64,000 nt of DNA from Minisyncoccota bacterium. Lineage in GTDB: Bacteria; Patescibacteriota; Minisyncoccia; UBA6257; 2-01-FULL-56-20. Below the pieces are notes generated by a model, which worked only from the letters and a program-made list of their open reading frames with translations, made no database searches and was not told the origin of the DNA. The position numbers and the translations under genes were made by a program. Below, piece after piece: positions 30,946 to 52,027 of this stretch (position 1 is its first letter; each line of letters opens with the position of its first letter). The DNA is taken from NCBI GenBank assembly GCA_022843285.1, contig JALHNY010000003.1:25533-89532 (forward strand). The letters are read 5' to 3'.

Positions 30946-31357
30946 GCAGTTCGTAGAAAAAACCCTGAAGTTGCTGGGTTTTGAGGACGTTAAGGTCTCG
31001 GTAGACGAGGACGGGCGCCGGGGCGCGCTGGTTATCGAGGGGCTGGATGGCGAGCACCTGCAGGACATGATCATGGCCACGAACGCCCTGGTTGCCAGGC
31101 ACGCAGAGAAGCACAAAGAGAAGGCCCCCTTCTTCGATATCAACGGGTACCGCGCCCAGCGCGAGGAGCTCATCTCTTCAATTGCGGCAGCGGCGGCGGA
31201 GAGGGTTCTCCAAAAAATGGAGGCCATCAGTCTCCCTCCCATGAACTCGTACGAGCGCAGGCTCATCCACGAGCACGCCTCTCAGGTTCCCGGAGTCAGC
31301 AGTGAGAGCGCCGGCGAGGGCAAGGAGCGCCACGTGGTTATTTCCCCCGAGGCCTAG
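30926..31357 (+). CDS. jag: Jag/KhpB-like R3H-domain RNA-binding protein
   Basis: C-terminal R3H-like segment …YERRLIHEHASQVPGV…; conserved position after yidC. Confidence 0.7.
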   Translation: MQKLPPEQFVEKTLKLLGFEDVKVSVDEDGRRGALVIEGLDGEHLQDMIMATNALVARHAEKHKEKAPFFDINGYRAQREELISSIAAAAAERVLQKMEAISLPPMNSYERRLIHEHASQVPGVSSESAGEGKERHVVISPEA

Positions 31358-32496
31358 ATTGCAGATTTGTACAGTGCGCCGGTGATGCGGTCTAGGTAGT
31401 AGACGGTGCTGCCAACCACCTGCAGGTCGGTGGCATCAACGGGAGCTGGCGTTGCAATGGTGAAATCTACGGAACGGGTTTCCAGGTTCACGCCCACGAG
31501 GACGTCATCGCTGAAGAACTCCTTGCGGTAGTAGGCGTCCGGGAGTGTTTTTCTCTGCAGGTCATCTTGGTCACGAGGTGCGCCGCAAACAACGTAGGGC
31601 GTCTCCTCATCCTCACCCGTGGGCATGCCAAAGAATGTGCACTTGTCTGGGATGGTGGTGAAAGAGAGCACCGCCTGCTCGATGCCGCCCACGATGAGCT
31701 TGGTGCGTCCGCCAGATCGGTACTGGTTAGCCTGGAAGGCCAGTGCGGTCTGCGCCGCGTCGTCCCACTTCGCTGCGTAGCCGAGCTTGCCCCGTGCAGC
31801 AATGGTCACGCGACCAGACGCCACGTCTACCGCCCAGGTAGAGCCGGCGCTCTGGTAGTTGGGCTTATCGGTCACGAGGATGGTCTGGGCATTGGGCCAG
31901 TCAATGGCTACGTCGCCCAGGGCGAGAGCCACCACCGTCCGAACGGTGCGGCCGAGTGCCGTGTCGTAGATGCCGATGGCAGTCTTTCCGGTAGCTGTGT
32001 CAGGCGTGAGCGTGGCGAGCTGGCTTCCCGAGGGCGCCCACGTCGCATCGCGGAAGGTGCCGGGGACAACGCGCCAGGTTGCGGAGGCAACCTCAAAAAT
32101 GTTGACCTGAGTGCGAGGCTGGTTACCCGTGAGCACCAGAATGCGGCTCCCATCGCCCGAGAAAGATGCGGATGCAAAATTCTCAACCGGCTTGTTGGAC
32201 AGGCTGGTGACCGTGGTGCTGGCAACGCGATCTATCGTGCCGTCCCTGTGCACTGCGACCACGCTCTCATCCGCGTACACGTAGTAAGCAGCAATGTCAG
32301 AAACGGGGATGGTCGCCTCGGCTAGGAACTCTCCGTTGCCCGGGTCTGCGGGGTTAAACTCCCCTCCAATTTCGGGGAGGTTACCGGCTGCGTCCCCCGC
32401 CCCGCTTGAGCCGCCGAGGAGCCAGTACCCCGCCAGGCCGATGAGGGCCAGCACGAGCAGCAAGACCAGAATGATGATTATTCGACGTCGGTTCAT
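31354..32496 (-). CDS. membrane-anchored hypothetical protein, possibly a beta-propeller
   Basis: N-terminal TM helix (IIIILVLLLVLALIGLAGYWLL) and a Thr/Ser/Gly-rich repeat-like extracytoplasmic region. Confidence 0.4.
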   Translation of the reverse strand: MNRRRIIIILVLLLVLALIGLAGYWLLGGSSGAGDAAGNLPEIGGEFNPADPGNGEFLAEATIPVSDIAAYYVYADESVVAVHRDGTIDRVASTTVTSLSNKPVENFASASFSGDGSRILVLTGNQPRTQVNIFEVASATWRVVPGTFRDATWAPSGSQLATLTPDTATGKTAIGIYDTALGRTVRTVVALALGDVAIDWPNAQTILVTDKPNYQSAGSTWAVDVASGRVTIAARGKLGYAAKWDDAAQTALAFQANQYRSGGRTKLIVGGIEQAVLSFTTIPDKCTFFGMPTGEDEETPYVVCGAPRDQDDLQRKTLPDAYYRKEFFSDDVLVGVNLETRSVDFTIATPAPVDATDLQVVGSTVYYLDRITGALYKSAI

Positions 32497-32517: not shown

Positions 32518-33447
32518 TTACTTTTTCTTGCAAGCAGGCTGACTTTGGATGCGGGTGATCTGCTCCTGGGTCAGACCGCCCCAGGTGCCCGAGGGGCACC
32601 CCTCGACGTGGAAGTGGTTGCCCGTCGAGCGCCCAGAAGCTTTGAAGCCGCACCCCGCGAATTCGTTCTTGTAGTACTCGTTGAGTGCAAAAACCCCGCA
32701 CGCGGTGAGGGCGTCGTAGAAGTTCTTCACCGCTTCGCAGTTCCTGGCGTAGCTCGCGGGTAGGACGAAGTCAGCAGAGCAGCCCGTGTAGTGCATGACG
32801 GAGCAGTGCTTGAGGCCGCTCACGGGGTAGGCTTCGGTGAAAATGATGCCGCTCGTGGGGACACCCAGCCTGTCAGCTGCGCACTTCACGCCGTTCACGA
32901 TGACCTTGTGGGCCGTGCACTCAGTGGAGACCTGGCACTTGAAGCCAGCCGCTGCAAGGTTTGAGCACCCCTGCGGGTTGCTTATGCAGGTGTCGGTTGC
33001 GGGCGGCACGACGCCGTTGCCCCTGGTGGTTCCTCCCGTTGTCGGCTGCTCCTGGTCCTGCTCAACCACAATCTGGTAGTTCGTGTCCCACCCCTCCCCC
33101 CGCTTGCCCTCGAGGGGCGCGAGGTACGGCAGCTGCAGCGTCGTGAGCCCCGGGTTCACGACGGCGAGGATGGCCCCGGCGCCGACGAGCAGGAGCGCCC
33201 CCACGAGGGCCTGCACGATGCGGTCCCACGCGTCCGCGAGCGCCGCGGGGTTGCCCCGGGAGAGCGTGTACTGGACCGCCCCGTACGCGATGCTCCCCAG
33301 GGCGAGGAGCCCCGCGACGGCGAGCGCGAGCAGGTACGCGTTCTGCACGAACGCGAGGACGCCCCCGTCCTGGCTCGGGTCCAGGGGGCCGGGGAGGCCG
33401 GGGGTGATCTTGGTTGCAGCTGCCCGCGCCGCCTCAATTAGCATCAC
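32518..33447 (-). CDS. double-TM (VirB2/TrbC pilin-like) N-terminus fused to a Cys-rich LAS/M15-type zinc-peptidase-like domain; putative cell-wall hydrolase
   Basis: Two long hydrophobic helices are separated by a short loop within residues ~30-100. The C-terminal domain carries H-x6-D (HYTGCSAD) and H-x-H (NHFHVEG), the zinc-ligand signature of LAS enzymes (M15/VanY-like). It also has many paired Cys. Confidence 0.45.
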   Translation of the reverse strand: MMLIEAARAAATKITPGLPGPLDPSQDGGVLAFVQNAYLLALAVAGLLALGSIAYGAVQYTLSRGNPAALADAWDRIVQALVGALLLVGAGAILAVVNPGLTTLQLPYLAPLEGKRGEGWDTNYQIVVEQDQEQPTTGGTTRGNGVVPPATDTCISNPQGCSNLAAAGFKCQVSTECTAHKVIVNGVKCAADRLGVPTSGIIFTEAYPVSGLKHCSVMHYTGCSADFVLPASYARNCEAVKNFYDALTACGVFALNEYYKNEFAGCGFKASGRSTGNHFHVEGCPSGTWGGLTQEQITRIQSQPACKKK

Positions 33448-34118
33448 TGAACCGGATCCAGGCTCACGCTGGCCTCAGCTCCCTCGCTCTCGGAGAGTGC
33501 ATTCTCCACGGACACGCCCACGTCCGCACCCTGCGTCGGGATTCCATCAACGGTGATGCTCAGTTCTCGCGGATCTCCGCTCGCCTCGGGAACCATCCCG
33601 TTGATGGTCCACGTGTAGAGCAGGTCATCAGCCGATGCCACGTTGAACGAGTACGGTGTTGCCTTGAAGTAGTTCTCCCCGGACCTCAGGAAAGACCCCC
33701 CGGGTGCCTCGATGACCACGCTGGGTTCAGCAAAAGGGACCACCATTGTTGCCTCGGTCGCGCTGAACGGTGCGCCGACAATCTGGACCCGGACATCGAT
33801 GTAGTCATCAGAAAACTCGGAGACGCGGAAGGTCGTCGAGAAGAGCCCCGGGCCACTCTGGTAGAGGTCGTCGTTGATGAACCAGCGAACCTCGTAGTTT
33901 CTCAGGTCTGCGGGGCGGCCATTCACCAGGGCTTCAACCAGCAGCAGGACGCTGCCACCCACCGGCGATGCCACCTTGCCCGCGTACCCCTCGGGGCTCA
34001 GAGCGTTGCTCCTCCAGGAGACCATGAGATCGCTGCTGGGAGTTGCGGGTGCCTGGGCGAACGCCGGATTCGCCACCGCAAAAGCAAGTGCGACACCTGC
34101 GGTGAGAAACTTGAGCAT
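33444..34118 (-). CDS. secreted hypothetical protein (signal peptide, 224 aa)
   Basis: N-terminal signal peptide MLKFLTAGVALAFAVANPAFA-QA; the start overlaps the upstream stop by 4 nt. Confidence 0.4.
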   Translation of the reverse strand: MLKFLTAGVALAFAVANPAFAQAPATPSSDLMVSWRSNALSPEGYAGKVASPVGGSVLLLVEALVNGRPADLRNYEVRWFINDDLYQSGPGLFSTTFRVSEFSDDYIDVRVQIVGAPFSATEATMVVPFAEPSVVIEAPGGSFLRSGENYFKATPYSFNVASADDLLYTWTINGMVPEASGDPRELSITVDGIPTQGADVGVSVENALSESEGAEASVSLDPVQ

Positions 34119-34157
34119 GATGCTAATTGTACCTTTTCCCGCTACCGGCTCCCAGCC

Positions 34158-34946
34158 CTACCCTGCTGGCTTGGGTGGTTGGCTGCGGCTGGTCGTTTTT
34201 GCTCCCGTGACGTCAACGTCAATGACGTCGGTGAGCTCTGGGAGGTTGTCCCGCTCGAGTTCCTCGTACGGGGCGAAGAACGGGTTGCCCGCTTCTTTAG
34301 AATCGGGGTTGCGGCTTTCAGAAATACCGGTTCTGGCCATCTCGTACGCCTGCTTCATCTTAGATTTCTTCGGCAGGTACCCATCTCCGGCACCCCGGTT
34401 GCCGCTCTCGGGGATAGAGCGCAGGGGTCCGGGCAGGCGCTGGCGGAGGTCGCTGACCTTCTTCTTGTACTGCTCAGCTTTTTTCTCAACCTGCTCGAGC
34501 TTCTGCATGCGCGCCGCCACCCGCTCTCCGGCAGCTGCCGCCTTGGCGCCGGCCATGTTTTTCGAGGGAATGTACTGGACCACCGTAGAGGCAATCTTGC
34601 TCTGGTCTGTTGCGATCACGAGAATTGCGCCAACCAGGTAGAGGGGCAGGTAGTCCACGATGGGGATGTACTCCGCGAAGTACATCACGAGGAACCGCAC
34701 CATGGGGCGCATGGAGGGAATCCCCTTGTAGATCAGGTAGATGAGCAGGATGACCGCCATGGCGGTCGCCAGAATATCCGCAATCGGGATTTCAAATGCG
34801 AGCGTGTCGGCAATGCTCAGGATGTCGAGGATGAGCGAGACAATGATGAGCAGGGCTGCGCCCACTTTGCCTATCTTGTGCGCGTTCCCAGTGTCCTCTC
34901 CCGCATCTGGATTGCCACCGGCGGCCATGGTTTGGTACCGGTCCAT
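34158..34946 (-). CDS. hypothetical membrane protein (3 TM plus coiled-coil/basic tail)
   Basis: Lies immediately downstream of the VirB4-like gene; has hydrophobic helices and a Lys-rich coiled-coil. Confidence 0.4.
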   Translation of the reverse strand: MDRYQTMAAGGNPDAGEDTGNAHKIGKVGAALLIIVSLILDILSIADTLAFEIPIADILATAMAVILLIYLIYKGIPSMRPMVRFLVMYFAEYIPIVDYLPLYLVGAILVIATDQSKIASTVVQYIPSKNMAGAKAAAAGERVAARMQKLEQVEKKAEQYKKKVSDLRQRLPGPLRSIPESGNRGAGDGYLPKKSKMKQAYEMARTGISESRNPDSKEAGNPFFAPYEELERDNLPELTDVIDVDVTGAKTTSRSQPPKPAG

Positions 34947-34949
34947 CGT

Positions 34950-36671
34950 CTACACGAGCCCCGTTTCCTCGAGGAGCTGCTGGGGATTTGTGGTGATGAG
35001 CTTGTCCTCAAAGAAGGACGGAATGATCTGGAGGGCGATGTGGCGCTGCCCGGCGAAGAACAGGCCGGTGCCCACCTCCGCGGTCAGGAGGAGGTTCTTC
35101 TCGGTCTCGGTTAGGTTGAAGGCTTTGCCCACAATGTCGATGGTTGCGGGAGCCTGCTTGAGCAGGAGCTGCACGGACGAGTTCGTGATAATCGGGCGGC
35201 CGTACGGGGAGCGGAGGAAGTCCTCCACGTCCTGCGTGATGGTGGAGACGCCGAGGTAGTACTTGCGGGCGCGCTTCACCAGGCCGAAGAGGAAGTTAGC
35301 ACTGTCCTCGTTCTTCATCATGATCCAGGCCTCATCGATGAAGAGCAGGCGCTTCTGGAACCGGGCGCGGATGAGGTTCCAGATGAAGTTGAGGATGACG
35401 TACATGGCCACGGGGCGGAGCTGCTCCTCGAGGTCACGAATCGAGAACACAATGAGGCGGTTGTTGAGGTCAATGTTCGTGGGCTTGTTCACGAATCCGG
35501 AGAAGCTGCCCTGCGTGTACTTGTACAGGCGCTCGGCAAGGGAGCGGCCGCCGTCGATGCTGCGCAGGACCGTCTCGAGGTCCTCCAGAATCGGAGGCTG
35601 AGCCTTGGAAAAATCCTCTCCGGCAACAATTTCACGGCTGGCGTACGTCTCCGTGATGGCGCGGTCCAGGAGGGCGTCCTCTTCGCTCGTCATCTCGCCG
35701 AGCATGAGGCGCGCGAGGCCGGCGACCGAAACGATGTGGGACCGCAGAACGTCCGAGGCAGACTCGTTGGGTGGGACGATGGGAATGTCGAACGGGTTAA
35801 TCGTGTTGTTGCTGGTCAGCGAGATGTTGAAGAAGCTTCCCCCGAAAGCCTCGGTGAGCTTCTGGTACTCGTTCTCGGGGTCGATGACGATGATGTTGGT
35901 GCCCATCATCAGCGAGCGGATAATTTCCAGTTTCGTCGCGTAGCTCTTTCCAGAGCCGGACTTTGCGAACACCACCTGGTTGGCGTTCTCCAGGCTGAAG
36001 CGATCGAAGATGACCAGGCTGTTGTTGTGCCGGTTGATGCCGTACATGATGCCCTCCTCGCTCATGAGGTCCTCTGCCACGAACGGGAAGAACGAGGAGA
36101 GCGGCCCCGAGTTCATGGGGGTTGTGACGTTGATTTTGTCCTGGGAGAGAGGAATCGTGGATAGGAGGCCCTGGAGCTGCTGGAATAGAGCCGGCTTGAG
36201 GTACACGAGCTTGGCTTCGAGCATGGACGTAATCTTGGATTCGAGCTTGGACAGTGCGACCTCTGAATCAGCGTAGATAGTGATGTACACGCCCACCGTG
36301 AAGAGCTTCTCCTGCGCCTGCTGGAGGGTGTCGCGGAGGCCCTCGACGTCATCGAGGGCAGTCTCGAGCTGCGGGTCGCGCACGAGACCCTTGTCAGCGG
36401 CCGTGTTCATCTGGGCTTCCACCTGGGCTGCCTTCTTGCGGAGCTGCTTGAGTGCCAGGCCCGTGTCGAACGGGTTCACGAACATGGCAATGTCCAACAG
36501 CTCAGGCAGGTTCACGATGGGCTCGAACCAGCCGGTGGTCAGGAACCTCGGGTAGCCGAAGAAGAAGAGAGTCTTCGCGTACTTGGTGCCGATTTTGACG
36601 CTCGACGATCCCACCTCTACGCCTGCGGGTGAGATGATCTGCTTCGCGGACTGGAATGCTGAGTCTGGCAT
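34950..36671 (-). CDS. VirB4/TrbE/CagE-family T4SS ATPase, ATPase portion
   Basis: Walker A VVFAKSGSGKSYATK, Walker B LLFIDEAWIMM, and a 'GYPRFL' segment typical of Gram-positive VirB4 homologues. Its start ATG lies 2 nt after the stop of the upstream ORF encoding the VirB4 N-domain. Confidence 0.8.
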   Translation of the reverse strand: MPDSAFQSAKQIISPAGVEVGSSSVKIGTKYAKTLFFFGYPRFLTTGWFEPIVNLPELLDIAMFVNPFDTGLALKQLRKKAAQVEAQMNTAADKGLVRDPQLETALDDVEGLRDTLQQAQEKLFTVGVYITIYADSEVALSKLESKITSMLEAKLVYLKPALFQQLQGLLSTIPLSQDKINVTTPMNSGPLSSFFPFVAEDLMSEEGIMYGINRHNNSLVIFDRFSLENANQVVFAKSGSGKSYATKLEIIRSLMMGTNIIVIDPENEYQKLTEAFGGSFFNISLTSNNTINPFDIPIVPPNESASDVLRSHIVSVAGLARLMLGEMTSEEDALLDRAITETYASREIVAGEDFSKAQPPILEDLETVLRSIDGGRSLAERLYKYTQGSFSGFVNKPTNIDLNNRLIVFSIRDLEEQLRPVAMYVILNFIWNLIRARFQKRLLFIDEAWIMMKNEDSANFLFGLVKRARKYYLGVSTITQDVEDFLRSPYGRPIITNSSVQLLLKQAPATIDIVGKAFNLTETEKNLLLTAEVGTGLFFAGQRHIALQIIPSFFEDKLITTNPQQLLEETGLV

Positions 36672-36673
36672 GG

Positions 36674-37339
36674 CTACGCGGCGGGGGCGGTTGGCATGGG
36701 AACGTCGGTGCGCTCAATCGTGTCGGGGTTGTAGAAGTTGTAGTACAGCTCTACCAGCTCCTGGTTGTTGAGAATGGTAGCCTCGAGGCCAATCTGGCGG
36801 ATGCCGTCTATGACCGACTCGACCCTCTGCTGGAGCTGCCCCGCGTTCTCCTTGAAGGTGCTCTCGGTGGAAGCTTTCATTTCCTCCTCGTTCTTCTTTT
36901 TTCCGAAGAAGGGCAGCGAGCTCGTCACGCTGCTCGCGGACGGAAGGTTCATCGGGTAGTACGGGACCACCACGATGAACATCTTGCGCATGATGGCGAA
37001 CTGGGAGACGAAGCCGCGAATGAACTCCTGGTACTCGTTCATCTGGTTGCGGAGGAGGCCGCTCGGCTCGTCGGAGCGGCGCTTCTCCAGGAGCGAGAGG
37101 TACTTCTCGATGTTGATCTTGCGAGAGTGAATGACAATCTGGACCTGGTAGTCCAGTGCGTTGAGAAAGTTCTGGTACGCGCGGACGATCACGTTCTGCT
37201 CCTCCTCAGACTTGAGGGCGAAGTTGGTGCCGCCAACCATGACGAGCTGGCACATGCCTCCGCCGCGCAGCATGACGATGTTGTCCCTGATGTCAGAGAT
37301 CTCAACCAGGTCCTGGGAGTTCGCCGCGTTTGAAGCCAT
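36674..37339 (-). CDS. VirB4 N-terminal domain (CagE_TrbE_VirB-like) encoded as a separate ORF
   Basis: …ISDIRDNIVMLRGGG…FALKSEEEQNVIVRAYQNFLNALDYQVQIVIHS… follows the pattern at the start of Gram-positive VirB4 proteins. It ends in TAG and is in a different frame from the downstream ATPase ORF. Confidence 0.6.
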   Translation of the reverse strand: MASNAANSQDLVEISDIRDNIVMLRGGGMCQLVMVGGTNFALKSEEEQNVIVRAYQNFLNALDYQVQIVIHSRKINIEKYLSLLEKRRSDEPSGLLRNQMNEYQEFIRGFVSQFAIMRKMFIVVVPYYPMNLPSASSVTSSLPFFGKKKNEEEMKASTESTFKENAGQLQQRVESVIDGIRQIGLEATILNNQELVELYYNFYNPDTIERTDVPMPTAPAA

Positions 37340-37371
37340 GGAGGTATTATCTGCGATGGAACTGCTGGATG

Positions 37372-37878
37372 CTAGCCGGTGAAATCGACGCGCTTGGCTG
37401 CCCGGAGCTCGCCGGTGACCTGGCGGAACACCTCGAACGTGCTCTCCGCGGCGGGGTCGCGGACGTCTTTCTGCTCGGCTTTGCTGCCGGTTTGGACGTA
37501 CTGCCAGGTCTTTTTGAGGCTGGTGCCCGAGATGATGCTCTCGAGGTTCAAGCTGCCGCTGACCTGGTGCATGGTCTCGGTGTTCTTGGGCATCTGGGGC
37601 TTATCCGGCTGCCAGAGGTAGAGCTGGGGGTTCCAGTAGAAGAGGAAGCCGAGGATGACGAGCTTTGAGAGCTTCTGCCCGTTCACTTTGACGAACGCGA
37701 GGCTGATGCCAGCTCCGCCAACCACCAGGGCGAAGAGGATGAAAAGGAAGCTCTGGAAGAAGAAGTACAGAACGAAGATCAGGGCTGCCGTGATGCAGAC
37801 GTAGATAAACTGGCGAATCGTGAAGGGACCCGCGATTTTATCCTCGGTATCGATGAACTGTGGGATCTGGTACTGCAT
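37372..37878 (-). CDS. PrgI-family / VirB3-like small membrane protein
   Basis: N-terminus MQYQIPQFIDTEDKIAGPFTIRQFIYV followed by two TM helices matches, from memory, the PrgI family found upstream of VirB4 in Gram-positive T4SS loci. Confidence 0.55.
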   Translation of the reverse strand: MQYQIPQFIDTEDKIAGPFTIRQFIYVCITAALIFVLYFFFQSFLFILFALVVGGAGISLAFVKVNGQKLSKLVILGFLFYWNPQLYLWQPDKPQMPKNTETMHQVSGSLNLESIISGTSLKKTWQYVQTGSKAEQKDVRDPAAESTFEVFRQVTGELRAAKRVDFTG

Positions 37879-37908
37879 GGCGCCTCCTGGGCGCTAGTCT
37901 ACCACGCT

Positions 37909-39000
37909 TTACGCCTTCGGAGGTGCCGGAAGGTCGTCTATGGGGGTCGGAGCTCCAGCGTGGGTCGGCGCGGGCGCAGTCGGAGTTTCCGAGTAGTCCA
38001 CGTTCTTTGCGTCCGCTGGAATCGGAGCTTCGAGGACGTCAGTCGCGTGCTTGCGGTTGGCCCCAAACTTTGCGGAGTGCCACGGGGCAATCTTGCTGAT
38101 AATGCTGTCCACGAAGCCGGAAGGGGCTGCGTCAGGCTCTGGCTGCATCGGAACGGAGACCACCTCTGGAGAGGGCGTGACGGGCAGGTCCATTGCCGGC
38201 ATTGGGGTGGTCGCGAGCGGCACCGGGGCGGTCATCGAGAACGCCGGAGGGGCGACGTTCTGCGCGGAGTAGTCGATCTCCTGCAGCTGCGGCGTCTTCT
38301 TCTCCACGAAAATGGACTGGAACTTCGAGTCCAGGCTGGCCGCCGTGCCGAGGTCGATGCGGGCCGCCCTGCGGGGAGGGGCGGATGGCGTAACGCCAGG
38401 CGCAATGTTGCCGCTGCCCATGGGGCCGCCAATGCTCGCCGTTGCAGCAGATACCTGCTGCTGGTTTGCGAGGGCATCGCTGTGGAGCGGCAGGGGGGCC
38501 GGGGCAGCAGAGGTCGGCACGAACGCTGGCACCGAAGCCGTGCCGGCCACCGGGGCGGGCACGACCCGCTGCGGTGCCACGGGGGTGGAGCTCGGCATGC
38601 TCGCGGGTGCGCCGGAGATTGCAGATCCGCGAAGGTCGAGCTGGGGGCCGATGGGAACGGGCACCGTTTTCTTGGTTGCAGCGCCCAGCTCCTCTTCTCC
38701 GATGCCGAAGCGGACCAGGTCGTTGGCAATGGGGAGGAGAATTTTTAGCTTCACCTCTTCGTAGACAGAGCGAGCGAGGGCCGGCGTAATGCCGAGCTCA
38801 GTAGCGAGCCTGCCCTCAAATTCGGAGAGCTTGATGTCGCGCACCTCGAGAGCGAAGAGGAGCCTCGGGAGGGCAGTTTCAGTTTCCGGCAGTGAGAACT
38901 TCTGCTCGATGTCGACGATAGCCTGGTCAACGGCATCGCTCCAGAACCAATCCTGGATTGGCTGCGGTACTGCTCTCAGTTTTTCTTGTGCGGTGGCCAT
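37909..39000 (-). CDS. hypothetical protein with a Pro/Ala-rich low-complexity C-terminal two-thirds
   Basis: 363 aa, a ~110-aa N-terminal globular region then a P/A/S/T-rich repeat region; no TM helix. Confidence 0.4.
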   Translation of the reverse strand: MATAQEKLRAVPQPIQDWFWSDAVDQAIVDIEQKFSLPETETALPRLLFALEVRDIKLSEFEGRLATELGITPALARSVYEEVKLKILLPIANDLVRFGIGEEELGAATKKTVPVPIGPQLDLRGSAISGAPASMPSSTPVAPQRVVPAPVAGTASVPAFVPTSAAPAPLPLHSDALANQQQVSAATASIGGPMGSGNIAPGVTPSAPPRRAARIDLGTAASLDSKFQSIFVEKKTPQLQEIDYSAQNVAPPAFSMTAPVPLATTPMPAMDLPVTPSPEVVSVPMQPEPDAAPSGFVDSIISKIAPWHSAKFGANRKHATDVLEAPIPADAKNVDYSETPTAPAPTHAGAPTPIDDLPAPPKA

Positions 39001-39009
39001 GGTTGCAGT

Positions 39010-41274
39010 TTAGCTAGTTCCCCAGAGCTGGTTAATCGCGTCCTGCTTCGTCTTCACCTCGCCCTTCGAGTCCACCGTCGACTGGAGCTTGGCGCGCGCC
39101 CTCTCGCGGCGGGTCTCGAAGTTGACGCTCTTCTCCAGCGTGTTGAGCATCGCCTTGATCTTCGTTTCGGTGGTGCGCTTGTGGTTCTTGAGGCCCTCAG
39201 CGTCGAGTTTGAGATCCTTGAAGTACGCTTCCCACTTCTTGTCGTCCCCGTTTGCCTTGTCCTCCTCAATCATCTTGCTGAGGAAGTCGAGCGTGCTGTC
39301 GATGTGGTCAATGGTGAGCGGGTTGATGTCACCAATTTTCTTGAGGGTGCCGGTGTTGATGGCGAGCGTGTTGAGCGCCTGCCCGAGCTGGACGCCGCCA
39401 TCGTCATCTTCCTTGGGGCCGAACATGGTGACCTCGTTGGCGATGTTGATGACGTTGTCTGGCTTGATGGCGCCGACGTAGCCCGCGATGGCTTCCTCCT
39501 TGGTGATGACGTCGCTGTCGTCTTTGGCGTCCTTGCGCTTCTTGAGCGGAGCAAACTCTGCCAGGCGAGGATCTGCCTCGAGGACGTCCTTGAGGTTGCC
39601 GGCGTCAGCCTGCCTCTTGAAGAGCTTCTCGAGCTTCTCCTTTTCGACCTGCTCAGCTTTTTTCTTCTTTTCAGGGTCTTCGGTCTCCCCCATCTCGCCC
39701 TTGCTGCGGGTCTTGGCTGCGGTTGAGATGCGCTCATCCATCTGCTTCTTGATGTCCCCGAGGCCCTTCTTGTCTTTGAGGAGCTCGAGAATGGCCGCCT
39801 CGCGGTCCGGGTTCGCAGCGAGCGAGCCACTGCTGAGGCGATCCAGCTCCTTGAGGAGGGCGTCCTTGGTGAGGCCGCCGAGGTCAGTCTTGTACCCCTT
39901 GATGCGCTCCTCGGGACCCTTGCGATCTACGACACCCGCTTTGGCAATGGCAGAGCCGGCCGCGCCCAGGCCGACCATGCGAGCGGCGCGGTTCCCCGAG
40001 GCGAGGGTGGAGAGTCGTGATCCGAAGCGCTGGAGCCTCGAGTTGCCGTCCGCATCCTTGCCCGAGCTGCGGGCACGATCGAGCGCGCGCAGGCCAGCGT
40101 TCTTGGAGCGTGTCGTGACCTGTCGCTTCACGGAGTTGCCCGCGGATTCCATTATTTTCACACCGGTGCCCGCTACGCCGATGCCCATTTTGTGCGCGAG
40201 GTAGAGGCCTCCCCACAGTGCGCCGCCGATGATGCCAGCGGTCATGATTTGATCCACCATCGGCTGCAGGAAGCTGCCCAGAATTCCAGAGAACGCGTTG
40301 AGCACGCCCTTGTTAGCAGATGCCGCTGTTCCCAGTCCGCCTGATGCGTTGATGCCACCAGAAGCGGCGAACACGTCGGCAATGCGGAGACCCAGGTACA
40401 GGAAGAACAGGGCTACCGGGCCGAAGAAGGTCCACTTGATGAACAGGTTCATCCACTTGGATACGTACGACTGGGAGAACGGGAAGATCCAAGCGACCCA
40501 GACACCGGGGAGCATGACCAGCAGCAGTCCTAACCAGATGTACCTCAAGAAGAAAGCTACGATCATCACCCCGAGGAACAGGAGCACCTGGAAAATGAGG
40601 GCAACCGTGATGAAGACGCTGACAATCATCGCGTACATCTGGCCAGCGTTGGCAGCGGCATCGCCAAACTGCTTAGCCCACTCGTCCTTCGGGTCACCCT
40701 TGATGAAACCCTGCTGCGGCTGCGTTGCCGTTGCGAGCCTGTCGGCAAACTCAAAGAACTGGGTGTTGCCGTCTCCGGTGGGCACGGACGCGTTCAGGAA
40801 GAACATGGATAGCTGATCTGAGAACGACAGGGCGGTACCAGCGAGAACCAAGCTGAAGTTCACGCCAACCGCGGCGATGACAATCTTGAGGAGCAGCTGC
40901 CTGACGCCGTACGTGTTCCAGCGGACAATCGTGGCAACAGCCATCGTGATGACGGCAGCGACGAAGAGGATGTTGGCGAATGCCAGGACAATAGAGAAGC
41001 CAACCGATACCGTCGGTGAGTTAACAATGTCGAGGTTGAGCCGCATGACGACGCCCAGGAAGAAAGCCTCGATTGCAATGAAGAGCGCTCCAATTGAAGC
41101 AATGGCCCACGAAATTGCGTACGTCGCGTAGAGGAAGGCACTGAAGATGCCACCCTTGACCGACTCGAAGAGGTCAAAGATGGACCAAGCAGCGTGAGCC
41201 TGCTCGGGAACGAGCAGGAGCAGCGCGCCCAGTGCCGCAGCAGTGCCGAAGCCAAGGATCCTCGCTCTATTCAT
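39010..41274 (-). CDS. VirB6/TrbL-like polytopic T4SS membrane protein with a long charged C-terminal extension
   Basis: Signal-like N-terminus, at least seven TM helices with a conserved-looking GxxxW region, then a ~380-aa Lys/Glu/Asp-rich tail. The start is set at the internal Met (MNRARILGF…), 4 nt from the upstream stop. Confidence 0.5.
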   Translation of the reverse strand: MNRARILGFGTAAALGALLLLVPEQAHAAWSIFDLFESVKGGIFSAFLYATYAISWAIASIGALFIAIEAFFLGVVMRLNLDIVNSPTVSVGFSIVLAFANILFVAAVITMAVATIVRWNTYGVRQLLLKIVIAAVGVNFSLVLAGTALSFSDQLSMFFLNASVPTGDGNTQFFEFADRLATATQPQQGFIKGDPKDEWAKQFGDAAANAGQMYAMIVSVFITVALIFQVLLFLGVMIVAFFLRYIWLGLLLVMLPGVWVAWIFPFSQSYVSKWMNLFIKWTFFGPVALFFLYLGLRIADVFAASGGINASGGLGTAASANKGVLNAFSGILGSFLQPMVDQIMTAGIIGGALWGGLYLAHKMGIGVAGTGVKIMESAGNSVKRQVTTRSKNAGLRALDRARSSGKDADGNSRLQRFGSRLSTLASGNRAARMVGLGAAGSAIAKAGVVDRKGPEERIKGYKTDLGGLTKDALLKELDRLSSGSLAANPDREAAILELLKDKKGLGDIKKQMDERISTAAKTRSKGEMGETEDPEKKKKAEQVEKEKLEKLFKRQADAGNLKDVLEADPRLAEFAPLKKRKDAKDDSDVITKEEAIAGYVGAIKPDNVINIANEVTMFGPKEDDDGGVQLGQALNTLAINTGTLKKIGDINPLTIDHIDSTLDFLSKMIEEDKANGDDKKWEAYFKDLKLDAEGLKNHKRTTETKIKAMLNTLEKSVNFETRRERARAKLQSTVDSKGEVKTKQDAINQLWGTS

Positions 41275-43639
41275 CGAGGGTGGGCAGCGGGATGTTGCAG
41301 GCTCGGTCGCGCAGGTTCTCCTGTGCGGCATCGCGGAGGCCATCAATCTGAGCGACGCGAATGGCAACGCGTGTCAGTACCGAGGCCATGCTCGAGTTGA
41401 TGACGTCCGCCTCGTTCATGTACGTGGCAATGCCCATGGCGGATGTGGAGCTGGCGACGTTGGAGCGGAGTGTGGCCAGCGTCCTCCCCGTGCGGGAGAG
41501 CTCAGTGCGGTCAGTTTCGTTGGTCGGTGCGATCCGATCAATTGCGCCAATGCGCTGGTTCGCGTCCGAGGCGTAGGCGGTGCAGGTGAGGGCCACCGAG
41601 CGCAGCACCGGAACGGTCGAAGACGCCGTGGTGGGCCAGGTTGCCGCAGAGCTCGATGCTTGGTTGATGCGGCTTTCGAGGCTGCCAATGAGCTGGAGAG
41701 CCTGGCTCCTCAGTCCATCGATGTCGGGGTCAGGGTCCCCGCTGCCCGGGAGCGTGCTGGTGCCCGTCGTGCTCGTCGTGCTGGGACCCGGGCCACCGCC
41801 GTCTCCGTTGAACAGGCCCAAGATGCCACGCTCGGCCATGCCGACCAGGCGGGTGATGGCGGCATCAATGAGGACGCCAATGAGCCCCGCCAGATCTTCT
41901 GCGTTGACGATGTTGTCGAGGGAAGCGCCGAGAGCTTTCTCGACCTGGCCAGCCACAGCGCCACCTGGAGTGGTCTGCTGCATGCCACCGGGGCGACAGA
42001 CTTTCACCTCGCAGTACCTGCCCGGTGGCAGTGAAGAGGGAACCGTAGTCGTGCCGCGCGTGATGGTGCTGACCGAGAAGCAGCCGCGTGGACCTATGCC
42101 GACGACGCCCGAACTGCTGGATTGGTTCATGGTTTGGTACTGACCCTCCGTCATGATCTCGAGGTCGTAGCTCACGCACCGCTCCATCCCCTTGTACCCC
42201 TGGTTGGCGGCAGCATTTTGGCTCGCGGCCTCAGCGCTAGCCTGGGACTGTCGGGCAATTTGCTCGTTGGCTAGGATGACAGCTCCGAAGACGTTGTTCT
42301 CGGGGAGGACGGAGCTCAGGAAGCCTGCCCAGCCGCCCGCGCGGAAATCGTCATAGAAGGCGCGGATGTTCTGCACAACCTGATCTAGGGTGCAGGTAAT
42401 CGGGGTTTGGCGCGTTTCGGGTATGAAGGCGCGAGCTCCTCCCGAGGCGAACGTTGAGAAGTTGGTACACAATTGGGGCGCAATCATGGTGAGGGCTTGG
42501 TTGGCAGCCCCCACGCCAGCATCCGTCAGGAACTTCTTCCAGTTCGTGATGAACTGGGGCTTGCCGCCGCCCTGGACCCACTTGATGGTCTGCTGAATCA
42601 TGCGGCCCACAATCTGGTTCTTGAGGATTTGGGTCGCAATTTTTCTGGCCCACTCCACGAGCGTCTGCGTCCAGGTACCGGCAATGCCAACGCCGTTGAA
42701 GATGCTGACGATGATGTGCTTGATGTCCGTGAAAACGAACGCGTGAGCGGAGGAAACGCCGAGCATCGACGCAATCATGAAAGGCTCGCGCGCTTGCGCG
42801 AACATCTCGGGAGCCTTCTCCTCGAACTGCGTTACCGCAAGGTGTACCCGAGCTTCCTCCTGTGCCCGCAGCTCGGGGAACTTTGCGGTGAAGACCACCG
42901 CCTTGAGCGGATCGGTCGCGTAGTTGATGTCGCTGAGCTGCCGGTTGAGCTCGAGGTACGTGAGGAGTGAGCGGTGCATGTCCGCTGCTGGCTCCGGGAC
43001 GGTCGCATTGTAGAGTGCCTCCTGCGCATCGGAAAAGATGAAGTTCGAAGCTTGCATGGAGGCTTCGGTCGGCTCTCCGTAGGAAGCGCGAGCCATCAGG
43101 CCGGAGATGCCGCGATCGCTGTTGATCTTCGACATGGTTTGGTCGAGGGTCGTGAAGTACTCGTCGACCTGCGTCGTCGTGTAGTTGCGCACCACTTTCA
43201 CCCTGCCCTCATCGATGGCGTACGTCGTGGGGGCCATCGCCGCGTCGGTGACGTACTCGTCAACGAATGACTCGATGTCGATCGGGGGTGCGATGCCGTA
43301 CCCCTCTTCCGGCCCGTTCGGGTTCTGCTTCACGAACTCGTACGCCAGGCCCTTGGCGAGAGTATCCGTGTAGTTCTCCCGGGTTGTGATGGTCGGGGAG
43401 AACTCTTTCGCTAGGTCGTAGCCTTCCACGACGCGCCCGCCGGGGATTTCTTCAATGAGCGCCGTGTCTCCAATCTTGGGGACCTGCGACTCGGCATTTT
43501 TTTGCACCGTGCGCGCGATGAGGGCGTCCCCCTCGCTGCGCTGGCGTGCGAGGCTCGTGACAGCGAGCGTTGCAGAGCCAGCCAGAAGGGCGAGGACCAA
43601 GAAGGTCGTTACGAGCCGCCGGAGATCGTGACTCTGCAT
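41267..43639 (-). CDS. large (790 aa) N-terminally membrane-anchored extracytoplasmic protein, hypothetical (first gene of the T4SS-like cluster)
   Basis: Single N-terminal TM helix (LVTTFLVLALLAGSATLAV) and a long Ser/Thr/Gly-containing ectodomain. No family recognised. Confidence 0.45.
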   Translation of the reverse strand: MQSHDLRRLVTTFLVLALLAGSATLAVTSLARQRSEGDALIARTVQKNAESQVPKIGDTALIEEIPGGRVVEGYDLAKEFSPTITTRENYTDTLAKGLAYEFVKQNPNGPEEGYGIAPPIDIESFVDEYVTDAAMAPTTYAIDEGRVKVVRNYTTTQVDEYFTTLDQTMSKINSDRGISGLMARASYGEPTEASMQASNFIFSDAQEALYNATVPEPAADMHRSLLTYLELNRQLSDINYATDPLKAVVFTAKFPELRAQEEARVHLAVTQFEEKAPEMFAQAREPFMIASMLGVSSAHAFVFTDIKHIIVSIFNGVGIAGTWTQTLVEWARKIATQILKNQIVGRMIQQTIKWVQGGGKPQFITNWKKFLTDAGVGAANQALTMIAPQLCTNFSTFASGGARAFIPETRQTPITCTLDQVVQNIRAFYDDFRAGGWAGFLSSVLPENNVFGAVILANEQIARQSQASAEAASQNAAANQGYKGMERCVSYDLEIMTEGQYQTMNQSSSSGVVGIGPRGCFSVSTITRGTTTVPSSLPPGRYCEVKVCRPGGMQQTTPGGAVAGQVEKALGASLDNIVNAEDLAGLIGVLIDAAITRLVGMAERGILGLFNGDGGGPGPSTTSTTGTSTLPGSGDPDPDIDGLRSQALQLIGSLESRINQASSSAATWPTTASSTVPVLRSVALTCTAYASDANQRIGAIDRIAPTNETDRTELSRTGRTLATLRSNVASSTSAMGIATYMNEADVINSSMASVLTRVAIRVAQIDGLRDAAQENLRDRACNIPLPTLDE

Positions 43640-43679: not shown

Positions 43680-44474
43680 TCAAGCTTTTCCAGAGTAGGT
43701 CAGAATTGCCGCGAGCTTCGCAATCAATTCCACCGAGAGGTCCTGCGGCCTGGCGTTAGTGGGGAGGCCCACCTGTTCGAGCGCAGCAGTGACGGCAGCT
43801 TTCTCGGTGCCGTCCCCCGTCAGGTTGTTGGCTAGCACTTTCCGGGGCTGCGTGAAGGCGCGGCGCGCCAAATCTTCGTAGGCGGCTCTGTTCTCCACCG
43901 GATGTTCTCTCCTTATAAAGGAGAGAACAGCAGAATCTACCCTGGGAGGAGGGCTGAAAGCCGTTTTGGGGACCAGGGTCACGATCTCGGGCGTCGCCCA
44001 GGCGCCCACAAAAGCGGCGAGCTTGGTGAAAGATCCAGGACCAGCTGCAATGCGCTCGGCGACTTCCTTCTGCATGAGCAGGGCTGCCCGTCGGGGCGGG
44101 TTAGCCAGTTCTCCCATCTGGCGCACCAGAAAGCTCGTCAGGTAGTACGGAATGTTGCCGGCCAGCTTCCAGTCCCCTTCGAGGGAGTCCGCCACCGATC
44201 CCAGGACCTCGCGGATGTCCCCGTGCACCACCTCGAGGCTGGGGTTCTTCTCCTTATTATTGTGAACCAAACCCGCGGCGAGCTTCACGTCACGTTCAAT
44301 CGCGATAATGCGATGGTGAGGCTCGGCGAGGATGTGGCGCGTGAGCTCGCCGTGGCCAGGTCCGACTTCGACGACCGTGTCGCTCTCACCGAGCTGGAGC
44401 GCACGAACGAGAGCCCGCGCGGGGCCCGGGGTTTTCAGGAAGTGCTGTCCCAGGGGTTGCCTCATGGTTACCAC
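43680..44474 (-). CDS. rsmA: 16S rRNA (adenine1518/1519-N6)-dimethyltransferase RsmA/KsgA
   Basis: …QHFL… SAM-binding VVEVGPGHGELT and NIPYY motifs. Confidence 0.85.
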   Translation of the reverse strand: MVTMRQPLGQHFLKTPGPARALVRALQLGESDTVVEVGPGHGELTRHILAEPHHRIIAIERDVKLAAGLVHNNKEKNPSLEVVHGDIREVLGSVADSLEGDWKLAGNIPYYLTSFLVRQMGELANPPRRAALLMQKEVAERIAAGPGSFTKLAAFVGAWATPEIVTLVPKTAFSPPPRVDSAVLSFIRREHPVENRAAYEDLARRAFTQPRKVLANNLTGDGTEKAAVTAALEQVGLPTNARPQDLSVELIAKLAAILTYSGKA

Positions 44475-46246
44475 AATACGTCTATGTACCGCTCTTCGTC
44501 ATCCAGGTCGAGCCTGCGGCTCCCCCGCTGCCCCGCGGTGACCGTGTACTGTTCGGGAATTTCCAGAATGAATCTGCTCGGAACGTGCACGAAGCTGATG
44601 GATAGGTCCTGGCGCGCCCGGGTCATTGCCACGTAGAAGAGGCGGCGCTCCTCTTCAAGCTCCGCCTCAGATCCCAGAGAGCGGCTGTGCGGCATGGTCC
44701 CCTCGCTCGCTCCGGCAATGTGGACGCGATCAAATTCCAGACCCTTAGCCATGTGCGCGGTCATCAGGGTAATGCCGGCAGCCGAGTTGCCTCCCGATCG
44801 GGTGTCCGTGGACTGCACCAGTGAGACGTGCTCGAGAAAGTCCGTGATGGTCTCAAAGGTTGCTGCGAAGTTGCGCAGCTCAGAGACGTTTGCGATGCGG
44901 TCCTCGGCGTTGTCGAACGTGTCCTCCAGGTGCGCCGCGTAGTGGCTCGCCGAGAGGAACACGTCGATGGCCCTCGTGGGCGTGGGGCTATCGAGCTCGA
45001 GCAGCGCTTCGAGGATGGGCGTACCCCGCTTCTTTTTGAACGTTTTCAGAATGCGCTCCGCGCCGAGAGCGTCATGGTGGTTGGCGGCCAGGCGCACGGC
45101 AGCGAGCACGTCCCGAATTTCTAGGCGGTCGTAGAACTGGACGCCGCCGTAGACGTGGTACGGAACCCGTGCCCGCACGAGGGCGTGCTCGAGGGCGCGA
45201 GCCTGCGCGTTGGTCCTGTAGAGAATAGCCGCTGAGCCTTTGCCAGATTGCACGTACGCTCCCAGCTGCTGTGCAATCCAGGCAGCCTCGTCGAGCTCCG
45301 TGTAGAACTCCGCAACGGTGATGGGGTTCCCCTCCTCCTTGTTGGCGCTCAGCTTTTTCTCTATCTGGTTCCGGTTGTTGGCAATGACGGCGTTGCTGGC
45401 CTCAATGATCGTTTTCGTGGAGCGGTAGTTTTCTTCGAGGCGGATGACGCGAGCCTGGGGCCAGTCCTTCTCGAACGCGAGGAAGATGTCGATGTTGGAT
45501 CCCCGCCAGCTGTAGATGGTCTGGTGGTCGTCTCCCACGACGGTGAGGTGGCTGCGCTCACCGACCAGCGCTCTCACCAGGCGGTACTGAGCCGCGTTGA
45601 TGTCCTGGTACTCATCGATGAGCACGTACCCAATCTCGTTCTGGTAGCGCTCGCGCAGCTGCGGGTGCTCTTCGAGCAGCTGCGCCGGTTTGATGATGAG
45701 GTCGTCAAAGTCGAAAGCGTTGTTCGTCGCGAGTGCCTCTTCGTACGCGCCGAAAGCAGAGACAGTCGCCGCAGCGAGCGGAGACGGATTGCCCGCGAGG
45801 TTCTCAAGTTGCTCCATGCCATTTTTGATGGCGCTGATTTTGTTTCGTAGCGTCGCAGCGGTGACCTTGCCCGGGAGCGTTTTAGCGATGCGACGCAGGA
45901 GCGTCATCGTGTCACCGTCGTCGTAGATGGTGAAGTCACGGGTGCGCGTGCCGAGCAGCGGTGCGTGCTTGCGGAGAAAGCGGGCTCCGAAACTGTGAAA
46001 CGTCCCAATCCAGGGAGCGACTTCCCCGCCAGCGTGCACCGTGCGCTCGCGCATTTCTTTTGCGGCCTTGTTCGTGAAGGTGACGGCAAGGATGCTCCGA
46101 GGATCGACGCCGAGGTCAATGAGGTGGCGGATGCGTTCCGTGAGGGTGCGAGTTTTTCCGGTTCCTGCGCCCGCGACGATGAGCAGCGGTTCAGCTCCTG
46201 CTTCTACTGCGGAGCGCTGCGCGGGGTTGAGGGGTGCTGGTGTCAT
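44468..46246 (-). CDS. UvrD/PcrA/Rep-family ATP-dependent DNA helicase
   Basis: Walker A AGAGTGKTRTL, motif II VLIDEYQD, and later SF1 motifs; 592 aa. Confidence 0.85.
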   Translation of the reverse strand: MTPAPLNPAQRSAVEAGAEPLLIVAGAGTGKTRTLTERIRHLIDLGVDPRSILAVTFTNKAAKEMRERTVHAGGEVAPWIGTFHSFGARFLRKHAPLLGTRTRDFTIYDDGDTMTLLRRIAKTLPGKVTAATLRNKISAIKNGMEQLENLAGNPSPLAAATVSAFGAYEEALATNNAFDFDDLIIKPAQLLEEHPQLRERYQNEIGYVLIDEYQDINAAQYRLVRALVGERSHLTVVGDDHQTIYSWRGSNIDIFLAFEKDWPQARVIRLEENYRSTKTIIEASNAVIANNRNQIEKKLSANKEEGNPITVAEFYTELDEAAWIAQQLGAYVQSGKGSAAILYRTNAQARALEHALVRARVPYHVYGGVQFYDRLEIRDVLAAVRLAANHHDALGAERILKTFKKKRGTPILEALLELDSPTPTRAIDVFLSASHYAAHLEDTFDNAEDRIANVSELRNFAATFETITDFLEHVSLVQSTDTRSGGNSAAGITLMTAHMAKGLEFDRVHIAGASEGTMPHSRSLGSEAELEEERRLFYVAMTRARQDLSISFVHVPSRFILEIPEQYTVTAGQRGSRRLDLDDEERYIDVLW

Positions 46247-46886: not shown

Positions 46887-47220
46887 TTAATATGTCGCAA
46901 AATATTGATAAACATGTTTATCAGAGGGTAAATGTTTGTCGACAAACATTTATGTGCAATTTGGTAAAAAGTGTTTAGCGCTAAACACTTTTGTTTCTAA
47001 AATCCGGTAATTTTTGATAAAACACCCTGACAAACATGTTTGTCAGGGTGTTCGATGTTTAGCGCTAAACAAAAATGCTGTTTTTAGATCTAAATTAGGG
47101 AAAAATGTTTAGCGCTAAACAAAATTTCGCAAACAAAGTGTTTAGCGCTAAACAAGTATTTACTGATAAACATGTTTGTCAGGGATTAATAATATGTCGC
47201 GAAATATTGTTTATCAGGGA
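46887..47220. repeat. AT-rich island with an array of 16-30 bp palindromes built on TGTTT/AAACA half-sites
   Basis: TGTTTAGCGCTAAACA occurs four times (~46973, 47055, 47106, 47139). TGATAAACATGTTTATCA / ACACCCTGACAAACATGTTTGTCAGGGTGT / TGATAAACATGTTTGTCA occur at ~46906, 47027 and 47165. AAATGTTTGTCGACAAACATTT is at ~46935. The flanks share a similar sequence (AATATGTCGC[A/G]AAATATTG…TTATCAG[A]GG at 46889 and 47190). Confidence 0.75.
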
Positions 47221-51950: not shown

Positions 51951-52023
51951 GCACCCATAGCTCAACGGTTAGAGCAGTCGTCTTATACACGACCGGTTCC
52001 TGGTTCGAGTCCAGGTGGGTGCA
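51951..52023 (+). tRNA. tRNA-Ile with a UAU anticodon (AUA-decoding)
   Basis: GCACCCA-TA-GCTC-AACGGTTA-GAGC-A-GTCGT-CTTATAC-ACGAC-CGGTT-CCTGG-TTCGAGT-CCAGG-TGGGTGC-A. All stems pair perfectly, with U33 and A37 flanking anticodon TAT. Confidence 0.75.
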
Positions 52024-52027
52024 CCCG

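Follow-up and report, generated by a model that had tools for sequence, protein, structure and literature searches.

The stretch of DNA considered here, 64 kb from contig JALHNY010000003.1 of a Minisyncoccota bacterium (the window, to which all coordinates refer), is made of compact housekeeping genes with a GC content of about 62% (0.625), and it contains a cluster of genes that resemble those of a type IV secretion system (T4SS). The nine open reading frames (ORFs) g1 to g9, which a preliminary description had presented as co-directional and tightly packed genes of the minus strand at 32518-43639, are all found at these positions, and the spacing between the cluster genes goes from -8 to +40 nt (Table 1). 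The flanks named in that description, i.e., rsmA and uvrD upstream and jag/yidC downstream, are confirmed as well, but the block is larger than it had recognised, because a tenth syntenic gene, g10, and the start of the co-directional run at uvrD and rsmA had been overlooked. At its downstream end, g10 converges on jag, which has an R3H domain, and yidC; dnaA, dnaN and rnpA are also among the flanking genes found.

Table 1. Positions of the T4SS-like genes, their flanks and other features of the 64-kb window
Feature	Position	Strand	Description
g1	41267-43639	-	790 aa, N-terminal membrane anchor, no known family
g2	39010-41274	-	754-aa polytopic membrane protein, VirB6/PrgH position
g3	37909-39000	-	363 aa, Pro/Ala-rich
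g4	37372-37878	-	small membrane protein, PrgI/VirB3-like
g5	36674-37339	-	TrsD-like; VirB4 N-terminal domain as a separate gene
g6	34950-36671	-	VirB4-type ATPase, MPF_FATA / CD1110 family, without N-terminal domain
g7	34158-34946	-	small membrane protein, 3 hydrophobic segments and charged tail
g8	33444-34118	-	exported, two tandem Ig/FnIII-like beta-sandwich domains (predicted)
g9	32518-33447	-	VirB2-like pilin hairpin fused to Hedgehog-N/LAS-fold zinc-peptidase-like domain
g10	31354-32496	-	membrane-anchored, TolB-like beta-propeller (predicted); final gene of the co-directional block
rsmA	43680-44474	-	upstream flank, same direction as the cluster
uvrD	44468-46246	-	upstream flank, start of the co-directional run
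intergenic region	46906-47181		divergent, between the minus-strand block and nusA; carries palindromes
sigma70-like matches	47155-47217	-	within the palindrome-bearing intergenic region
ftsK	52760-54922		FtsK with alpha and gamma domains
PilB/T2SSE-type ATPase	21512-23173	-	with MshEN domain
tRNA-Ile	51951-52025	+	anticodon UAU
ClpB-like ORF	9702-12146	-	814 aa
tmRNA gene	1117-1483	+	Rfam RF00023, 104.5 bits

The cluster is anchored by g4, g5 and g6. In the hidden Markov model (HMM) searches, g4 matches the Pfam family PrgI (PF12666) with 38.3 bits against a cutoff of 27, next to a weak match to TraL, and g6 matches the NCBIfam model conju_CD1110 with 386 bits (cutoff 325) over profile positions 185-733 of 752; P-loop_TraG (96.5 bits), AAA_10 and DUF87 match g6 too, and its translation shows GSGKS as the Walker A and LLFIDEAW as the Walker B motif. 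With both scores above cutoff, the PrgI/VirB3-like gene and the VirB4 ATPase of the preliminary description hold. The description had also proposed a separate gene for the VirB4 N-terminal domain, and g5 fits this: it matches N-terminal positions only of the VirB4 models (99-210 of VirB4_plasma, E 1e-12, and 5-98 of CD1110) and, in addition, the TrsD model NF041427 (E 9e-7), all of these scores being below their cutoffs. Since g5 matches the N-terminal VirB4 positions and g6 is without them, the "VirB4 N-domain plus ATPase" reading is correct and is the same as a TrsD/VirB4 pair, in which g5 appears to supply the N-terminal part missing from g6. Both the TrsD-like and the PrgI/VirB3-like genes adjoin virB4.

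Regarding g2, its ORF spans 39010-41367, with the ATG at 41274 as the most likely start, giving a protein of 754 aa; its N-terminus resembles a signal peptide, its hydrophobic segments number about six or more, and its charged tail of 334 aa holds 62 K+R and 60 D+E. The polytopic topology and the charged tail of the VirB6/TrbL-like protein proposed earlier are thus present, the tail having been put at about 380 aa, but the HMM searches do not back the name: g2 has no VirB6/TrbL match in Pfam or NCBIfam, its profile finds nothing among the PDB sequences, and Pfam on its orthologues gives nothing significant, the single match being to TrbL_4 in 1 of 15 (E 0.0099). Because of this we keep VirB6 only as a positional and topological assignment, according to which g2 would be VirB6-like by its topology and its place upstream of PrgI and VirB4.

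No family in Pfam or NCBIfam is matched by g1 and its orthologues, by g3, or by g7, and Pfam on 46 orthologues of the three finds no consistent family. The g1 protein has a single N-terminal hydrophobic segment, 8 Cys in total, several of them conserved, and a heptad-rich C-terminal part; its conserved core goes from about residue 330 to 620, with C391 and C488 invariant, and its profile gives only weak, coiled-coil-type matches in the PDB (haemagglutinin HA2, spike HR1). In g3, which has no transmembrane (TM) segment and consists of 15% Ala and 14% Pro, the N-terminal domain (about 100 aa) is conserved and the Pro/Ala-rich region after it is variable, and g7 joins a conserved membrane core of about 100-130 aa, with its 3 hydrophobic segments, to a lineage-specific tail, charged and about 130 aa long. 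As a side note on g1, the gene is unsplit (790 aa) in the window and in the three closest relatives (L001, L004, L006), and it corresponds to two adjacent genes, of about 260 and 500 aa, in 10 syntenic loci (L007, L008, L011, L012, L015, L017, L018, L021, L022, L023), which points to gene fusion or fission within the cluster.

Structural evidence is available for g8 and g10. The AlphaFold2 model of g8 has a mean predicted local distance difference test (pLDDT) score of 78.6, is all-beta, and consists of two beta-sandwich domains whose best Foldseek matches in the PDB are Fc-gamma receptors, Fn3 modules of CbhA, and RbmA, i.e., two-domain proteins of the immunoglobulin (Ig) or fibronectin type III (FnIII) kind (E about 1e-5). 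A role of g8 as a VirB8-like subunit, which would have the NTF2 fold, was considered and is rejected, because the model is tandem Ig-like and none of its matches is NTF2- or VirB8-like. As for g10, it has one N-terminal TM segment, and the profile built on its orthologues matches 12 TolB sequences in the PDB (E 1.2e-7 to 1.3e-6) across the propeller, so it is predicted to carry a six-bladed PD40/TolB-type propeller; by its synteny, it would belong to the apparatus.

The gene g9, whose most likely start is the ATG at 33444, in agreement with the 308-aa database protein P0001, encodes a pilin hairpin at residues ~12-120 and a Cys-rich domain at ~150-285, with 12 Cys in the whole protein. On its own, g9 reaches only 15.9 bits with the T4SS_pilin family (PF18895), under the cutoff of 26.6; among its positional orthologues, 5 of 10 are above this cutoff, and 23 of the 24 proteins that share its C-terminal domain match PF18895, with 4 that match TrbC/VirB2. 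An exhaustive HMMER search with the C-terminal domain against 1.8 billion representatives returned 26 proteins at E <=0.001, from which the query's own protein and three repetitive Cys-rich proteins were excluded; nearly all of the remaining ones have the same pilin-plus-domain architecture, and, with about 24 representative proteins so far, the family is rare. Within the motifs HxNGCAVD and GxHxH, the residues H218-x6-D225 and H279 are invariant in the 24 family members, and in HMM alignments they align to the HYEGRAVD motif of Sonic hedgehog (Shh). When the profile of the domain is compared with the PDB, all 22 matches are Hedgehog N-terminal domains, aligned on the Shh zinc-ligand motif (E 0.027-0.4), and a Foldseek search with a structural model of moderate confidence places Hedgehog N-domains in all of the top 34 ranks. 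These results support a LAS-type fold (lysostaphin, D-Ala-D-Ala carboxypeptidase, Sonic hedgehog) with intact zinc ligands, and the fusion of a pilin-like double-TM segment to a LAS peptidase, proposed in the preliminary description, is supported by this evidence together with the pilin matches of the relatives. The similarity in sequence to the Hedgehog N-domain is marginal (E 0.03-0.4); g9 differs from known members of the fold by its richness in Cys and by its fusion to a T4SS pilin, and VanY and other M15 peptidases match it far more weakly than Hedgehog does (rank 46, E 3.4). From the fold and the metal ligands, the domain probably cuts peptidoglycan peptides.

The succession of genes recalls the T4SSs of Gram-positive plasmids of the pGO1/pIP501 type, in which the order is TrsC-TrsD-TrsE-TrsF-TrsG. 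Their VirB3-like protein, TrsD, VirB4, small membrane protein, and membrane-anchored wall hydrolase parallel g4-g5-g6-g7-(g8)-g9, and the TrsD model matches g5. These plasmids encode a relaxase, a type IV coupling protein (T4CP), an oriT, and VirB8-like proteins, and are not known to have a pilin, whereas in the window none of the former was found and a pilin is present.

Relatives were collected by scanning one genome per species, and at least 588 loci encode a relative of the g6 VirB4; the best 80 of them, with 56-76% identity over the full length, were kept. All 80 loci come from metagenome-assembled genomes (MAGs) of uncultured organisms, most of which are labelled Paceibacterota, Parcubacteria, Patescibacteria or, by automated naming, Saccharibacteria, the others being unnamed. 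Neighbouring genes were counted in these loci by tblastn: TrsD (g5), directly upstream of virB4, is found in 78 of 80, PrgI (g4) in 75, yidC in 55, dnaA in 52, dnaN in 47, rsmA in 41, g2 in 32, uvrD in 31, g1 in 25, g8 in 24, and g10 in 18. The whole order uvrD-rsmA-g1-g2-g3-PrgI-TrsD-VirB4-g7-g8-g9-g10-(yidC)-dnaA-dnaN is kept in at least 14 loci, from Paceibacteria-type MAGs, where jackhmmer recovers g1 in 14, g3 in 13, g7 in 12 and g10 in 13, the exception for g10 being a contig that ends at its position. Iterative HMM searches indicate that the equivalents of the fast-evolving g3, g7 and g9 are homologous too. The dnaA of the loci that keep the gene order is only 36-59% identical to that of the window.

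The composition of the cluster does not set it apart from its surroundings, as the preliminary description had noted: its GC content is 0.612, close to the 0.624 and 0.631 of the flanks, and the GC at third codon positions (GC3) is like that of the housekeeping genes. It can be added that the window as a whole is richer in GC than all 80 related loci (median 0.42, maximum 0.60), and is an unusually GC-rich member of an AT-rich group. With respect to mobility, no relaxase, T4CP (VirD4/TcpA-type) or integrase has a Pfam match among the ORFs tested in the window, in line with the absence of relaxase, VirD4/TraG and integrase that had been claimed; the FtsK present is of the chromosomal translocase type, since it has both alpha and gamma domains, and no att-like repeats were found flanking the cluster. 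The conserved order, the host-like composition, and the lack of integrase and att-like repeats argue for a vertically inherited core locus and not for an integrated element.

The same evidence bears on whether the cluster could be the decaying remnant of an integrated conjugative element (ICE) that has lost its mobilisation genes. The CD1110 family of VirB4 is typical of Firmicutes ICEs, and VirB4 is apparently split into two genes, as might be expected of such a relic, but this split is the universal state in the related loci, none of the ten genes is disrupted, their packing is tight, and their order has been kept over the divergence seen in dnaA. On synteny, composition, and the lack of flanking att repeats and of an integrase among the ORFs tested, we reject the relic as hardly credible.

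Comparison with the literature places the cluster in a known group. A survey of 3,035 Patescibacteria genomes (Quinonero-Coronel 2025, Microb Genom, PMC12102498) reports VirB4 in 2,417 of them, in a clade nested in MPF_FATA, with TrsD more abundant than any other associated component, with PrgI, VirB6 and VirB2-like pilins near virB4, and, in the Paceibacteria, VirB1-like hydrolases associated with virB4 and a location of the cluster near dnaA, dnaN, ksgA and rnpA. The window shares with this system the chromosomal virB4 of MPF_FATA type, with TrsD and PrgI directly upstream, the VirB2-like pilin and wall hydrolase near virB4, the lack of a relaxase nearby, and dnaA, dnaN, ksgA (rsmA), rnpA and yidC as neighbours, so that, as far as the consulted parts of the survey go, there is no essential difference. 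What distinguishes the window is that its hydrolase is a Hedgehog-N/LAS-type domain fused to a pilin, and that g1, g3, g7, g8 and g10 are not among the components named in those parts.

A further point of comparison is the T4SS of Southlakia epibionticum ML1 (SEML1_0004-0019), one of the Saccharibacteria, which Wang 2023 (Cell, PMC10633639) found by transposon sequencing (Tn-seq) to be essential for epibiotic growth, and which is described there as similar to Gram-positive conjugative T4SSs, with pilins and, in the portion consulted, no recognisable T4CP or relaxase; in these respects ML1 and the window are alike. Both clusters adjoin replication-origin genes, and the minus-strand order in ML1, namely a long-tailed VirB6-like protein, PrgI, a TrsD-like protein, VirB4, a hydrolase, and an exported tandem-Ig protein, parallels that of the window; g8 resembles SEML1_0005, which is exported, has two Ig-like domains, and is essential (PMC10633639). 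The two differ in their pilins, six small ones in an array in ML1 (PMC10633639) and, in the window, only one pilin-domain ORF, which is fused to the LAS-type domain; ML1 also has lysozyme-like hydrolases and the NTF2-like SEML1_0012 (PMC10633639), and no NTF2-like protein was detected in the window. For g1 and g10, the ML1 table as consulted shows no obvious counterpart. Essentiality for epibiotic growth has been demonstrated only for ML1 (PMC10633639).

These published data are relevant to a second alternative, i.e., that the cluster is a conjugative system still transferring DNA, with its T4CP and relaxase encoded elsewhere in the genome. Most Patescibacteria genomes do carry VirD4-like genes, far from virB4, and few have relaxases (PMC12102498), and the window represents 64 kb of about 1 Mb, which leaves room for such genes. 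However, relaxases are almost absent from the group, with only 109 in the 3,035 genomes (PMC12102498), the t4cp homologue of S. epibionticum is non-essential whereas its T4SS genes are essential (PMC12102498), and the synteny with housekeeping genes is strict, so that we consider distant conjugation genes very unlikely.

The preliminary description had left the role of the apparatus between DNA uptake and interaction with a host or episymbiont, and of these the latter is favoured by the literature and the former is disfavoured by the published genetics of comEC. Under the DNA-uptake reading, the cell would use the cluster to take in DNA or nucleotides of the host or the environment, comparable to the ComB T4SS of Helicobacter and the Ced system of archaea; in favour of this, de novo nucleotide synthesis is out of reach for CPR (candidate phyla radiation) bacteria. 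The reading would agree with the lack of relaxase and T4CP in the window and with the co-localisation of T4SS loci of the class ABY1 with comF, recG and radA (PMC12102498), and g6 does show a weak similarity to CedB and CedD; this is, however, sub-threshold, with a CedB score of 42 bits against a cutoff of 700. Moreover, competence in S. epibionticum needs type IV pili and ComEC, and deletion of comEC ends competence and not viability, the T4SS remaining essential, according to a 2025 FEMS review that summarises the Patescibacteria T4SS and treats ComEC-dependent competence as separable from T4SS essentiality (PMC12857230). In the window, a PilB-type ATPase is encoded separately from the T4SS. 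We therefore regard DNA uptake as improbable. On its own account, this PilB/T2SSE-type ATPase indicates type IV pilus machinery some 10 kb away from the T4SS, a situation also seen in other Patescibacteria.

Taken with the synteny, the composition, and the literature, which agree with the resident, chromosomal, monoderm-type and non-conjugative T4SS originally proposed, our preferred explanation, to which we give a probability of about 90%, is that the region holds the T4SS of the Patescibacteria clade in its Paceibacteria form: a vertically inherited locus beside the replication origin, descended from monoderm (MPF_FATA) conjugation machinery and no longer coupled to a relaxase. In the mechanism that we propose, g4, g5 and g6, whose identities follow from homology, would assemble into the energising centre at the cytoplasmic membrane, g2, with its long charged tail, might supply a VirB6-like channel platform, as its topology and position suggest, and g7 may be an accessory membrane subunit. 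The zinc peptidase of the g9 pilin could open peptidoglycan, either of the cell's own wall, in a VirB1-type role, or of the wall of the host, while g1, the tandem Ig-like g8, and g10 with its TolB-like propeller might form an extracellular scaffold that spans the wall. By analogy with the cultivated Saccharibacteria, in which the homologous T4SS is essential for epibiotic growth independently of ComEC-mediated competence (PMC10633639, PMC12857230), the apparatus would serve contact-dependent exchange with a host cell, more likely than conjugation, and this exchange might consist in the export of protein or, in the opposite direction, in the uptake of host material.

Several points weigh against this explanation. 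No HMM backs the VirB6 identity of g2, and no VirB8-like component was found in the cluster; half of the model is drawn from gene position, as no family can be assigned to g1, g3 or g7. The membership of g6 in the Patescibacteria clade is suggested by best hits and synteny. The structural model of g9 is a moderate one, with a mean pLDDT of 59, 70-89 in the core of the C-terminal domain, and an underlying alignment of 4 sequences. Finally, the negative result for relaxase and T4CP covers this 64-kb window of a genome of about 1 Mb.

Since the T4SS itself is a further instance of a system published between 2023 and 2025, and already known as a kind, the locus contributes to it in detail: g10 as a tenth conserved gene, g8 as a tandem Ig-like protein by its model, and the hypervariable C-termini of the pilins. 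Regarding the last of these, an ORF with a pilin domain lies downstream of virB4 in 67 of the 80 loci, and most pilin ORFs near virB4 (50 of 70) are extended at the C-terminus by at least 100 aa. BLAST sorts the 54 extensions that reach 80 aa into 37 unrelated clusters, and for this reason we describe the pilin C-termini as hypervariable on a conserved core. The closest database relative of g9, P0003, is 100% identical to it at residues 12-120 and unrelated beyond. The nucleotide sequence gives a similar picture, as positions 774-1117 of the metagenomic contig LNFM01104986.1 (L085, 1358 bp) match positions 33069-33412 of the window over 344 bp with 98.3% identity, and the similarity is limited to the pilin core of g9, with the leader and upstream sequence and the C-terminal domain both unrelated; this pattern suggests pilin paralogues or alleles, or a shuffling of modules around a homogenised core. 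The alternative C-terminal domain of P0003-P0006 was considered as a lytic transglycosylase by its motif VCxxES...GLFQIN, which we take to be SLT-like, but it has no PDB profile match and no precomputed Pfam domain, and the assignment is unconfirmed.

In related contigs, the pilin-plus-domain genes stand at the head of, or within, arrays of small pilin genes; in L082 (302-3991) and L081 (9270-14094), for instance, they occur with arrays of 4-8 small T4SS_pilin genes. No other pilin-like ORF and no pilin array is found in the 64 kb of the window, so any such array in this genome must lie elsewhere. A possible explanation for the variability, which we put forward tentatively and with more doubt than conviction, is that the T4SS pilin of this lineage is a carrier of interchangeable C-terminal enzymatic or effector modules, represented here by a Hedgehog-N/LAS-type zinc peptidase. 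If this were true, modules displayed on, or released from, the T4SS pilus and cutting the host wall would give episymbiotic CPR bacteria a polymorphic weapon that determines their host range. The pilin-hydrolase fusion and the modularity of the pilins are not mentioned in the consulted portions of PMC12102498 and of the companion T4SS papers, and we regard them as modestly new, a lead rather than a finding.

The interest of the locus comes from the fact that few machines are candidates for the exploitation of hosts by ultra-small episymbionts, the Patescibacteria T4SS being one of them, and that no T4SS before that of the Saccharibacteria had been shown to be essential for its own carrier bacterium. 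In this context, the window offers a clean ten-gene Paceibacteria reference with structural annotation, which includes the predicted tandem-Ig protein, TolB-like propeller and pilin-Hedgehog-like peptidase fusion, and the fast-changing modular C-termini of the pilins may give a lead on host specificity and on how the host wall is breached.

Some observations concern the control of the block and other parts of the window. The minus-strand block, which comprises a 116-aa ORF, uvrD, rsmA and the T4SS genes, is separated from nusA by a divergent intergenic region, and within this region a 16-bp palindrome, TGTTTAGCGCTAAACA, occurs in 4 exact copies, and an 18-bp palindrome, TGAYAAACATGTTTRTCA, in 3 copies. 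Both are found nowhere else in the window, where 0 copies are expected by chance, and they may be a candidate operator array, judged from the sequence, that controls the block including the T4SS. A scan for promoters and terminators found no sigma70-like site inside the cluster, a scan of this type being uninformative for CPR promoters; the minus strand has sigma70-like matches only at the positions listed in Table 1.

Around the ClpB-like ORF the GC content is 69-72%, well above the 62% mean of the window. In this ORF, Pfam finds the second AAA module together with the lid and the D2-small domain, and neither a first AAA domain nor Clp_N. The tRNA-Ile with anticodon UAU, an uncommon bacterial way to read AUA, is located beside tRNA-Gly(UCC) and tyrS, and a tmRNA gene is present near the start of the window.

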